From Patescibacteria group bacterium (GTDB lineage Bacteria > Patescibacteriota > JAHJAL01), in NCBI GenBank assembly GCA_049322675.1, contig JBMORM010000009.1:291517-355516 (forward strand): a DNA stretch of 64,000 bases, read 5' to 3'. The notes beneath the pieces are model-generated. The model was given only the letters and a program-made list of their open reading frames with translations. It was not told the origin of the DNA and did not search any database. Of the stretch, positions 24,127 to 27,069 are shown piece by piece; the stretch's first letter is position 1; each line of letters starts with the position of its first letter. A program made the position numbers and the translations under genes.

Positions 24127-27069
24127 TTATTTTACGACAATGTTTACTATCTTTCCCTTAATATAAATTTCTTTGACAATTTCTTTGCCGGTGATAAACT
24201 TTGTTACTTCGGGAGTTGATTTGGCAAGGGAAATGATTGTTTTTTCTTCAAGGTCGGCGGCAATAACAATTTCCGCCCGTCTTTTGCCGTTAACTTGAAT
24301 AGGAATTGTCAGAAGTTCTTCTTTGACTAGATCAGGATCGTATTGCGGCCAAGTCATGAGATTGATTGAATTGTTGTGACCCAATTGATGCCAAAGTTCT
24401 TCGCAAACATGGGGACAAATTGGAGAAAGCAATAACAATAAACCTTCCAGGGCTTGTTTCCAAGCCAGGGGATCTTTGGCAAGAGGAAATTTTTGTTTCA
24501 GATCGTTGAGGTCGTTAACAAAAATCATCAGATTGGAAACAACGGTGTTGAAGCTAAATTTGTCATACAAGGAGCTGATGCGCTTGATGTTTTTGTGTAC
24601 AAGAGAAGCCAATTCGACTTCTTTTATTTCTGACGAGTCATAGAGCCATTGGTCGGGGGTTTCTTGGATCTTTTCGTTTACCAAAATAATTTCTTGTGCT
24701 AACGTCCACAGTTTGAATAAAAATCGATTGACGCCTTTGACGCCGTTGGTATCCCAAGGAATGGCATCGGTATAAGGACCCATAAACATTTCATAGCCAC
24801 GCAAAGTATCGGCTCCGTATTCATCAATTACTTCTATGGGATTGATAACATTGCCCTTGGATTTGGACATTTTTATACCACCTTCTCCAAGAACCATGCC
24901 ATGAGCGATGCGTTTTTGGTAAGGTTCGGAAGTCGGCACCAGGCCTTGATCAAAGAGAAATTTGTGCCAGAAACGGGAATACAGAAGATGCAAAGTAACA
25001 TGTTCCATTCCACCATTGTAAATATCGACCGGAGACCAATATTGTAATTTTTTGTAATCAGCAAAAATATCCTCATTATGAGGGTCGCAATAGCGAAGAT
25101 AATACCAGGAAGATCCTGCCCAGTTGGGCATAGTGTCGGTTTCGCGTTTGGCCGGACCACCGCAAGTTGGACAAGTAGTATTTACCCACTCGTCAATCGA
25201 GGCCAAAGGTGATTCGCCGGTATCGGTTGGTTGGTAATTTTTGACGTCTGGCAAGATTAAAGGCAAATCTTTTTCTGGCAAAGGAATAGTGCCACATTGT
25301 TCACAATAAACAATTGGAATCGGTTCGCCCCAATAATGCTGGCGGGAAAAAACCCAATCGCGGAGATTGTAATTGACTTTCTTTGATCCTAGTTTTTGTT
25401 CTTGTAACCAAGTAATTATTTTCTCTGTGGCAATAGCCGAATCCAATCCGGAAAATTCGCCCGAATCATGAGTGACACCATAATCAGAGAATAGTTTGGA
25501 GTTATTAAAAAATCTTTCTTTCCAGATATTAAATTCTGAGCAATTTAGATTTGGATCATGTTCCAATTCATCCCAAGTAAGCCAAATTAGATCGTATTTT
25601 TCTTGCTCATCGGCAGAGATGGATTGCTGTTGATTATCTATAAGCTCAAAGACCAAAGCAGTAAATAATGCTTGTCGGTTTACGTCTTTATGGGCGGCAT
25701 AAAAATTGGACTGAACTGGTAATCCTAGCGTTTTGATAAATTTTAAATTAAAAAATCCCGTTTCTTCGGCGATCTCTCTTTGAGCGGCAGCGATAGTATC
25801 CTCTCCTTCTTCGATACCTCCTACAATTAATGTAGTCCAAGGAAATTTTTTATGTCGAAGGCACAATATTTTTTTTGTCTTTGGATCAATAACAATGGCC
25901 TGGATTGCTTGTCGAAATACAGTAGATTTATCGTCTCGCAGAGGATGTTTGGTATCAATTATTTTGGGAATAATTACTTCTTTGATAGGCAAATCGTATT
26001 TGGAAGCAAAATCCCAATCGCGTTGATCGTGAGCAGGGACGGCCATGATGGCGCCGGTGCCATAGTCGGCCAGAACATAATCGGCAATCCAAATTGGTAT
26101 TTTCTCATTATTGATTGGATTAACCGCATAAGAACCAGTAAAAACACCTGTTTTTTCTTTATTTTCTTGGCGTTCGATATTGCTTTTGGCAAGCGAAAGC
26201 TTGACATACTTGTCCACATCTTTTTTTTGTTCGGGAGTAATTATTTTTTCAATCAATTCATGCTCAGGTGCCAAAACCATAAAAGTAACGCCAAATAAGG
26301 TGTCAGGTCTGGTTGTAAAAACTTCTAAATATTTATCTTTGAGTTTTGAGTTTTGAATTTTGAATTTGATACTTGCCCCTTCCGATCTTCCGATCCAGTT
26401 GGCTTGTTGATCTTTAATCGCAGGCAGATAATCAACATCCTTGAGACCATTTAATAATTTGTCCGCGTAGGCAGTAATTTTGAGCATCCATTGAGAAAGC
26501 TCTTTTTTGGTTGTGGGCGTGCCGCAACGCTCGCAATTGCCGGCAATTACTTCTTCGTTGGCTAAGCCCGTTTTACAAGAAGGACACCAATTGATTGGCA
26601 TCTTTTTTTTGTAAGCCAAACCGGCTTTGTAAAGTTGCAGAAATATCCATTGGGTCCACTTGTAGTATTCAGGTTTGGAGGTGTCAATTTCCCTCGACCA
26701 ATCGAAGGAAAAACCGACACGTTGAGCTTGTTTTTTAAAATTGGCGGTATTTTTGGCGGTAACGATTGTCGGATTGATCCCGTGTTTGATGGCATAATTT
26801 TCGGTTGGCAGGCCAAAAGCATCCCAGCCAAAGGGGAAAAGAACATTGTAACCATCCATACGACTTTTGCGTGCGACGATATCTAAAGCAGTATAAGGAC
26901 GGCAATGACCGACGTGCAGACCTTCGCCGGAGGCGTAGGGAAACTCGATCAAAATATATTTTTTGGGCTTGGAGGAAGAGTCTTGGCCTTGATATATTTT
27001 TTCTTCTTCCCAGACAGATTGCCATTTGGGCTCTATTTCTTGCGGATTATAATTTTTTTGTTTATCCAT
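24127..27069 (-). CDS. leuS: Leucyl-tRNA synthetase carrying an internal Nudix-domain insertion
   Basis: Present are the HIGH-class motif (HVGH), KMSKS, an editing-domain block [19 protein letters not shown] and the conserved C-terminal domain. At 980 aa it is longer than the roughly 860 aa of E. coli LeuRS. Confidence 0.9.
   Translation of the reverse strand: [980 protein letters not shown]
25510..25947 (-). other. Nudix hydrolase domain inserted in-frame within leuS
   Basis: A perfect Nudix box [23 protein letters not shown] is encoded at + 25757-25821, inside about 140 extra residues between ..IKEVII and ..SGEFSGLD. Confidence 0.7.

Follow-up and report, generated by a model that had tools for sequence, protein, structure and literature searches.

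The stretch analyzed here, referred to as the window, comprises 64,000 nucleotides of a Patescibacteria contig (JBMORM010000009.1). It carries on its minus strand a leucyl-tRNA synthetase (LeuRS) gene, leuS, whose 980-residue product harbors a Nudix domain inside its proofreading domain, CP1 (Table 1). The assignment of this open reading frame (ORF) as a LeuRS, made in a preliminary description of the same DNA, is borne out by the bacterial LeuRS equivalog model of NCBIfam, TIGR00396, which scores 1024.1 bits (cut-off 548.4) in two stretches with the insert between them; every peptide quoted in that description was found (VNYNLRDW, for instance, corresponds to residues 565–572). Pfam finds the catalytic, editing and anticodon-binding domains of LeuRS in the ORF. 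In addition, the HxGH, KMSKS, TTRxDT, GTG and HDxRD motifs are all invariant across the fused family, as judged from an alignment of 91 relatives carrying the fusion, to which the residue conservation given below also refers. The window protein is a functional-looking bacterial LeuRS, with leucylation and editing predicted from its motifs, and since both the synthetic and the editing sites are intact, the Nudix domain is not expected to make up for a dead editing site. Note that the leucine-specific domain of the Thermus thermophilus and Escherichia coli enzymes is absent from the window protein and from its relatives: at the corresponding point (residues 724–737, window 24859–24900), the T. 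thermophilus enzyme has about 45 residues more (about 593–637).

Table 1. Parts of the LeuRS–Nudix gene and the two free-standing Nudix genes of the window
Feature	Residues	Window position	Strand	Support or remark
LeuRS–Nudix ORF, uninterrupted	980 + stop	24127..27069	-	'class I tRNA ligase family protein' of a Patescibacteria metagenome-assembled genome (MAG), on a 374-kb contig; NCBI MFZ5391954.1
LeuRS catalytic core, first half (HVGH at 52-55)	1-223	26401..27069	-	Pfam; H52, G54 and H55 invariant in 91 relatives
First (N-terminal) three quarters of the CP1 editing domain	224-366	25972..26400	-	Pfam PF13603, profile 2-148
TTRPDT motif, CP1	252-257	26299-26316	-	Motif alignment
GTG motif, CP1	337-339		-	Motif alignment
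HDQRD motif, CP1	347-351	26017-26031	-	D351 = T. thermophilus D347
Inserted module	367-525	25495..25971	-	Replaces T. thermophilus LeuRS loop 363-375
Pfam NUDIX match	386-504	25558..25914	-	E 1.2e-12, 48.4 bits vs 21.1 (gathering)
Nudix box	417-439	25753..25821	-	G417, G418, E423, R431, E432, E435, E436, G438 (near-)invariant
Clade-specific motif A458-x-H460-K461-x-x-N464-R465	458-465	25675..25698	-	Conservation in relatives
CP1 editing domain, C-terminal remainder (SGEFSGLD at 536-543)	526-564	25378..25494	-	
Catalytic core, second half, anticodon-binding domain and C-terminal domain (KMSKS at 733-737)	565-980	24130..25377	-	
Free-standing Nudix, NudF/ADP-ribose (NDP-sugar) pyrophosphatase-like candidate		57163..57741	+	5C7Q, E 5e-17
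Free-standing Nudix, NUDT2-like asymmetric Ap4A hydrolase candidate		57745..58218	+	Human NUDT2-like; 3U53, E 5.6e-15

The position of the insert was defined by alignment with T. thermophilus LeuRS (1H3N): residues 5–366 of the window protein align with residues 2–362 of 1H3N and residues 526–741 with residues 376–592, while residues 367–525 stand in for a 13-residue loop (363–375), a net insertion of about 146 residues. The preliminary description had placed the insert past the end of CP1, ahead of the remainder of the catalytic core. However, the editing-domain profile PF13603 is matched ahead of the insert only over positions 2–148 of 185, whereas it is matched without a break (1–185) in relatives that lack the insert. 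The insert therefore splits CP1, residues 526–564 being the last part of the editing domain. The insert begins 16 residues past the key editing aspartate, D351 (D345 in E. coli), at a site that three close insert-less Patescibacteria relatives (64–69% identity) span with a linker of about 14 residues. The module occupies a surface loop of the CP1 proofreading domain in an otherwise normal LeuRS. Note that it is also the lowest-GC stretch of the gene, with a GC content of 0.356 overall and 0.277 at third codon positions (0.412 and 0.402, respectively, for the rest of the gene), which fits either a weaker codon constraint or a separate origin.

The insert contains a true Nudix domain, as had been proposed. 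Indeed, the Pfam NUDIX profile (PF00293) is matched over positions 3–119 of 134, with a score far past what a chance match to a motif would give. The Nudix box matches the pattern G-x5-E-x7-R-E-U-x-E-E-x-G-U exactly. It lies where the preliminary description had located it (25757–25821, to within four nucleotides), but not on the plus strand: the gene runs on the minus strand, and the plus strand of 25510–25947 translates to a stop-ridden sequence. Of the 120 best relatives, 115 have the strict box pattern and one more has a relaxed form of it. In the fused relatives, G417, G418, E423, E432, E435, E436 and G438 do not vary, R431 being kept in 90 out of 91. The AxHKxxNR motif that follows, in which K461 is invariant and N464 and R465 are at least 98% conserved, is a putative phosphate- or substrate-binding element; R386, W411, E488 and W496 are conserved too. 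The preliminary prediction that the domain is probably active, its catalytic glutamates being intact, agrees with the invariance of the box residues.

The predicted structure points the same way. The insert can be divided into three parts: an N-terminal extension that is conserved (P368..D372..NPP..GK381), the Nudix fold itself and a helix at the C-terminal end. AlphaFold2, run on the insert with an alignment of 38 inserts, returned a model with a mean predicted local distance difference test (pLDDT) score of 95.9 and a predicted template-modeling (pTM) score of 0.88, in which strands and helices follow each other in the expected order and form the alpha/beta/alpha sandwich of a Nudix fold. 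An ordinary LeuRS segment that matches the box by chance and has no Nudix fold, a possibility raised at the outset, is at odds with this model and with the Pfam score. In the full-length model (pLDDT 88.9, pTM 0.79), the Nudix region scored 92–95 and the N-terminal linker 88–92, and the prediction was confident across both junctions. The mean identity of relatives to the window protein is 47% over the Nudix part, 64% over the catalytic core and 39% over the anticodon-binding and C-terminal part; the fact that the Nudix value falls between the other two indicates purifying selection on the domain. Judging from these features, the insert carries a complete Nudix domain, and an active enzyme is a sensible expectation.

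The LeuRS-embedded Nudix domain is common among Patescibacteria LeuRS. PF00293 was found in 116 of the 120 best LeuRS relatives of the window protein and, with a second query, in 76 of the 120 best relatives, the other 44 being without it (both lists are biased towards fused proteins). The architecture is unusual when compared with model organisms, but not among Patescibacteria. The same description had suggested a survey of related genomes: a scan of GTDB species genomes, seeded with a 10-sequence insert alignment, gave 49 strong loci, 45 of which have the Nudix domain between LeuRS residues 366 and 526, with junctions as in the window. The named taxa with the fusion are Berkelbacteria, Paceibacterota, Buchananbacteria, Magasanikbacteria, Moraniibacteriota, Adlerbacteria, Minisyncoccia and Parcubacteria. 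An exhaustive profile search of 1.84 billion cluster representatives (50% identity) yielded 154 matches when the limit was set at E ≤ 1e-30, and 510 with a limit of E ≤ 1e-10. The embedded module explains why many of these LeuRS bear only the NCBI label 'class I tRNA ligase family protein'.

Many TPA (third-party annotation)/binchicken MAGs tagged 'Candidatus Saccharibacteria', and a few tagged Gammaproteobacteria, Bacilli or Clostridium, also carry a Patescibacteria-type LeuRS–Nudix protein (L018–L060). The idea that the fusion occurs in cultivated Saccharibacteria was dropped because the labels look unreliable, the nearest named relatives being Paceibacterota, Adlerbacteria and Kaiserbacteria (in one doubtfully labeled MAG, L027, they are Paceibacterota and Adlerbacteria).

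The module is accessory: it is cleanly gained and lost between close relatives while the LeuRS sites stay intact. Three insertion sites are distinguished here: site 1, which lies close to where CP1 begins; site A, the loop that holds the insert of the window; and site B, which comes after the CEQC zinc knuckle. All four combinations of a site-A Nudix domain and a site-B alpha/beta-hydrolase occur among proteins that are 84–86% identical in their core: the window protein (P0001) has the former only, P0002 has both, P0004 has the latter only, and P0005 and P0007 have neither. In other relatives, a second or third Nudix copy is found at site 1 (up to three copies in all), a Ham1/ITPase domain occupies site 1 in addition to the site-A Nudix domain (P0296 and P0334), a HAD phosphatase sits in the very loop of site A (P0346), and a HAD or Ser_hydrolase-type alpha/beta-hydrolase is present at site B. 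Patescibacteria LeuRS have at least three insertion hot spots, which hold varied sets of inserts in P0002, P0004, P0019, P0048, P0116, P0296, P0334 and P0346. In another genome, an IleRS of 1184 residues (L007, 6094–9648) has a His_Phos_1 domain embedded at residues 523–675; its gene belongs to a cluster with ArgRS, four Nudix genes, a dUTPase, a thymidylate kinase and a zeta-toxin-like kinase. From these varied LeuRS and IleRS insertions, it appears that class Ia synthetase loops in Patescibacteria accept several small hydrolases.

A 208-residue ORF that follows the insert-less, syntenic leuS of P0005 was considered as a split-off Nudix gene and rejected (hhalign probability 0.2%). This ORF (L001, 10495–11121) has no Pfam match and lies between leuS and a Polysacc_synt gene, where the window has a 154-bp spacer.

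The Nudix clade to which the insert belongs also has free-standing members. Among the top 150 members of the clade, about 25 are proteins of 150–200 residues, one of which, P0214, proved to be embedded in MetRS. They share the N-terminal extension of the insert (F-x-D..NP.R..K..V.R), and because this extension is common to free and embedded copies, the module seems to have been inserted as a whole gene. One of them, P0193, ends in TAA and is followed, after 2 nt and in a different frame, by an insert-less leuS, i.e. it is a split version of the fusion. A fused leuS begins 2 bp downstream of P0138, P0217 follows proS, P0240 precedes thrS and P0200 is located between argS and ileS. As to the other contexts, P0155 follows fpg, P0202 is beside a PRK-type (PF00485) kinase gene, three loci (L033, L036 and L056) are without a synthetase neighbor, and some free-standing members are also found in a dUTPase/thymidylate kinase/multi-Nudix cluster. 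Overall, a synthetase gene adjoins 5 of 10 informative contexts (L014, with P0249, was left out because its translation did not give the query), compared to an assumed chance rate of about 6%; under this assumption, the binomial P is 1.5e-4, or 1.3e-3 if the two leuS contexts count once.

P0214 is a clade member embedded in the MetRS of a lineage that reads TGA as Gly (code 25), just before the GKDxxxFH motif, and an in-frame TGA aligns to the conserved Gly of that motif (MetRS loci of this type are L012, 1–1240, and L013; Logan SRR1560849_544948 and SRR404094_839259). Its appearance as a free-standing protein beside a truncated synthetase is an artefact of gene calling with code 11. Among the top 150 profile matches, all multidomain carriers with identifiable partners are class I synthetases (LeuRS and, once, MetRS), several matches of 230–640 residues being unclassified. 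A rough neighbor-joining tree of the domain copies (no bootstrap, long branches) interleaves free-standing, site-1 and site-A copies. Altogether, a distinct Patescibacteria Nudix clade is linked to synthetase genes, either within LeuRS (at one dominant and one secondary site), within MetRS, or as an adjoining gene (leuS, thrS, proS, argS/ileS).

The clade was also met in another setting. P0219 (L095, 412–1251), and likewise P0222, P0257 and P0268, are stand-alone proteins of about 280 residues from a lineage of 27% GC, which combine a degenerate C-terminal half of the LeuRS editing domain with the Nudix module and the final helix of CP1. Their editing remnant has no GTG motif and reads AHIEED where AHDQRD is expected.

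As regards the substrate, the closest curated resemblance of the module, a weak one, appears to be to dinucleoside polyphosphate (ApnA) hydrolases of the RppH/NudH type. RppH models of NCBIfam are the first match for all 38 inserts, albeit a weak one (best E 1.2e-9), and the RppH equivalog cut-off was reached neither by the window insert (best model NF001938, 24.9 bits vs 116) nor by any of the 38, all of which score far below it. By comparison, the MutT model NF008044 is weakly matched by only 15 of the 38 inserts (best E 6.9e-7, below cut-off), that of the window not being among them. In a profile search of the PDB, the best match was AvrM14, and lupin diadenosine tetraphosphate (Ap4A) hydrolase 1F3Y was matched with an E value of 6.6e-8, only over the N-terminal half. 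The structural neighbors include RppH with Ap4A, CT771 (Ap4A), Ndx1 (Ap6A) and Rv2985 (ApnA); the template-modeling (TM) score against RppH is about 0.7, at 12–14% identity, and CT771 is 22% identical to the insert.

Residues downstream from the box were compared with signatures attributed to Dunn et al. 1999. A Tyr 16–18 residues after the Nudix box is said to mark asymmetric Ap4A hydrolases: positions +17 and +18 are F456 and Y457 in the insert, and the family columns (F50/Y41 and F57/Y28) are aromatic, but not consistently Tyr. A Pro 16 residues after the box reportedly marks ADP-ribose pyrophosphatases: this position (residue 455) is N in the insert, and the family column (E48/H18/N9) has no Pro among its three commonest residues, unlike what is described for that subfamily.

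The two free-standing Nudix genes that the preliminary description had seen at 57163–58218 are indeed present, 3 bp apart (Table 1). Neither is a close paralogue of the insert, and the NudF-like gene aligns with it only around the box. With these NUDT2-like and NudF-like genes, two of the substrates proposed for the insert already have candidate enzymes in the genome.

Our preferred reading, put forward tentatively and on sequence and predicted-structure grounds, is that the module is an accessory ApnA-type pyrophosphohydrolase clearing the Ap4A and diadenosine triphosphate (Ap3A) produced by a side reaction of the adenylate. We chose it because the RppH/ApnA-type resemblance combines with the linkage to synthetases; Ap4A hydrolysis, one of the activities offered in the preliminary description, is thus a plausible leading guess. 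Synthetases make dinucleoside polyphosphates when ATP or ADP attacks the enzyme-bound aminoacyl-adenylate. The domain would be a Mg2+-dependent pyrophosphohydrolase, i.e. an accessory enzyme tethered to the synthetase and acting outside tRNA-Leu proofreading, and its substrates would be free adenine-containing polyphosphate nucleotides of the RppH/NudH type, chiefly Ap4A and Ap3A. Tethering would ensure that the by-product, or alarmone, is destroyed at the site of its synthesis, and would fix the hydrolase:synthetase ratio at 1:1 in a cell whose genes and regulators are very few.

Several observations weigh against this reading. No curated Nudix subfamily cut-off was reached, that of RppH included. 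The window already encodes a NUDT2-like candidate Ap4A hydrolase, which would make a second one less needed. Very close relatives are without the domain, which is therefore dispensable for LeuRS. Finally, the Ham1/ITPase, HAD and alpha/beta-hydrolase domains present in the same or nearby LeuRS loops of relatives, along with the free-standing members beside fpg, dUTPase/thymidylate kinase or PRK-type kinase genes, favor a general theme of nucleotide house-cleaning.

It is indeed possible, if somewhat unlikely, that the domain is a hitch-hiker with no coupling to LeuRS: a sanitizer of the nucleotide pool (MutT-, NudI- or ITPase-like, acting on oxidized, deaminated or non-canonical NTPs) that is housed in a permissive loop of a protein both essential and constitutively made, thereby sparing promoters and regulators in a minimal genome. 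Such a role would account for the unrelated hydrolases accepted by the synthetase loops (including the His_Phos_1 domain of IleRS), for the occurrence of every presence/absence combination among proteins that are 84–86% identical, for the company kept by the free-standing members just mentioned and for the weak MutT matches of 15 inserts. It is less easily reconciled with the identity of the recognizable multidomain carriers among the top 150 matches, all of them class I synthetases, with the free copies that adjoin synthetase genes far above the assumed chance rate, and with the fact that the most consistent weak match is to the RppH models rather than to MutT.

That same match would also fit an enzyme acting on RNA 5' ends, which would, in the manner of RppH, strip pyrophosphate or Np4A- or NAD-type caps, LeuRS delivering it to tRNA-Leu or to other RNAs. 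The RNA pyrophosphohydrolase models are the most consistent curated match (38/38), the carrier binds RNA, and AvrM14, the best sequence match in the PDB, reportedly decaps mRNA in vitro. We nevertheless consider this role quite unlikely: all scores are far under the family cut-offs, the alignment with RppH goes with a very low identity, and the free-standing and MetRS-embedded copies show that the link is not specific to tRNA-Leu. Besides, processing by RNase P leaves mature tRNAs with a monophosphate at the 5' end.

Built-in proofreading through hydrolysis of Leu-AMP or of the norvalyl, isoleucyl or methionyl adenylates released by LeuRS, as envisaged in the preliminary description, is very unlikely. 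The location of the insert in the editing domain, so close to the editing Asp, would suit it, as would the fact that the clade is fused to or beside several adenylate-forming synthetases. However, Nudix enzymes cleave the pyrophosphate bonds of nucleoside-diphosphate-X compounds, whereas an aminoacyl-adenylate is an acyl-phosphate anhydride of a nucleoside monophosphate, which makes the proposed reaction chemically improbable. The known aminoacyl-adenylate hydrolases are HIT/HINT enzymes, whose fold and mechanism are unrelated to those of the Nudix module (a HIT domain is absent here), and the synthetases themselves. Moreover, the canonical post-transfer editing site is invariant, close relatives are without the domain and a HAD phosphatase can fill the same loop.

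A non-catalytic role, be it in sensing nucleotides, in offering a surface for the binding of tRNA or protein, or as structural ballast, is highly improbable too, since non-catalytic Nudix domains normally lose metal-binding and catalytic box residues, which are here invariant across 91 diverse sequences. As for a chimeric contig joining a Nudix gene to leuS, a concern raised in the preliminary description, it is next to impossible given the single uninterrupted ORF, the identical architecture and junctions in more than 100 independent assemblies and in the 45 GTDB species genomes, and the confident model through both junctions.

Beyond the ApnA-type activity that we prefer for the module itself, a wider coupling is conceivable, though on balance doubtful. 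The Nudix clade may be coupled in its mechanism to class I synthetases and to some of class II: whether tethered in LeuRS or MetRS or co-transcribed with leuS, thrS or proS, it would destroy at its source a nucleotide by-product that arises when amino acids are activated (Ap4A/Ap3A, or an ATP analogue that is damaged). With this domain and the Ham1, HAD and alpha/beta-hydrolase modules of neighboring loops, LeuRS would be the scaffold of a small multi-enzyme for by-product clearance and nucleotide sanitation.

Comparison with known systems helps to situate the fusion. The window protein belongs to the same family as the T. thermophilus (1H3N/2BYT) and E. coli (4AQ7) LeuRS (phmmer E 2e-232 to 1H3N) and has in common with them the HIGH and KMSKS motifs, zinc modules, the T-rich region and conserved Asp of CP1, and the anticodon-binding and C-terminal domains; these canonical enzymes differ by their short loop in place of the Nudix module and by their leucine-specific domain. 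Like the insert, RppH/NudH, CT771, Ndx1, Rv2985 and lupin Ap4A hydrolase have a single-domain Nudix fold with a full box. By contrast, these hydrolases are free-standing and only 12–23% identical to the insert, whereas the window clade is synthetase-embedded and has its own AxHKxxNR motif and N-terminal extension. In animals, an Ap4A-making synthetase, LysRS, is likewise paired with a Nudix enzyme that removes Ap4A, NUDT2, but the two are separate proteins; the insert of the window lies covalently inside the synthetase and is not an NUDT2 orthologue.

Two further systems bear on the architecture. NCBIfam NF040702 (IleRS, N-acetyltransferase domain-containing) also describes a class Ia synthetase with a second, unrelated catalytic domain, albeit a GNAT domain and with IleRS as the carrier; the NCBIfam scan matched no curated model of the LeuRS–Nudix architecture. 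The INS domain of ProRS and the free-standing YbaK/ProX proteins show the same inserted-or-separate pattern as the fused LeuRS and the Nudix–leuS operon. INS and YbaK, however, are aminoacyl-tRNA deacylases with a demonstrated editing role, whereas the Nudix module is a member of a pyrophosphatase superfamily whose role here is a prediction.

Elsewhere in the window, an IleRS gene (32480–35482), whose product of 1000 residues bears no additional enzymatic domain, and a gene for tRNA-Leu(UAA) (41266–41349) lie in the range of 5–14 kb from leuS. The 669-residue ORF divergent from leuS (27242–29251) has no Pfam match, and only an N-terminal C39-like peptidase domain was found in an ORF of 1154 residues (36718–40182).

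Both parts of the fusion are known families, and their Pfam architecture is already recorded in public databases. Yet no description of a LeuRS- or MetRS-embedded Nudix domain, or of the split/fused pattern, was found in the open-access full texts of PMC and bioRxiv. Synthetases are among the best-studied enzymes, and catalytic domains added to them have repeatedly brought new biology to light, for instance editing domains and, in eukaryotes, signaling functions. What is new here is a second, apparently active enzyme inside the LeuRS proofreading domain across a vast radiation of bacteria, most of them uncultivated. This module also occurs as an operon partner of synthetase genes and as a MetRS insert, and the fusion pattern points to a functional link between the Nudix domain and amino-acid activation. 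If this link is true, it bears on how minimal cells handle alarmones of the Ap4A type or damaged nucleotides. If the domain is only a hitch-hiker, it would provide a clear case of reduced genomes packing housekeeping enzymes into permissive loops of essential proteins. If, on the other hand, the module is coupled to the clearance of a by-product, it would represent a previously unrecognized layer of translation quality control in minimal cells.

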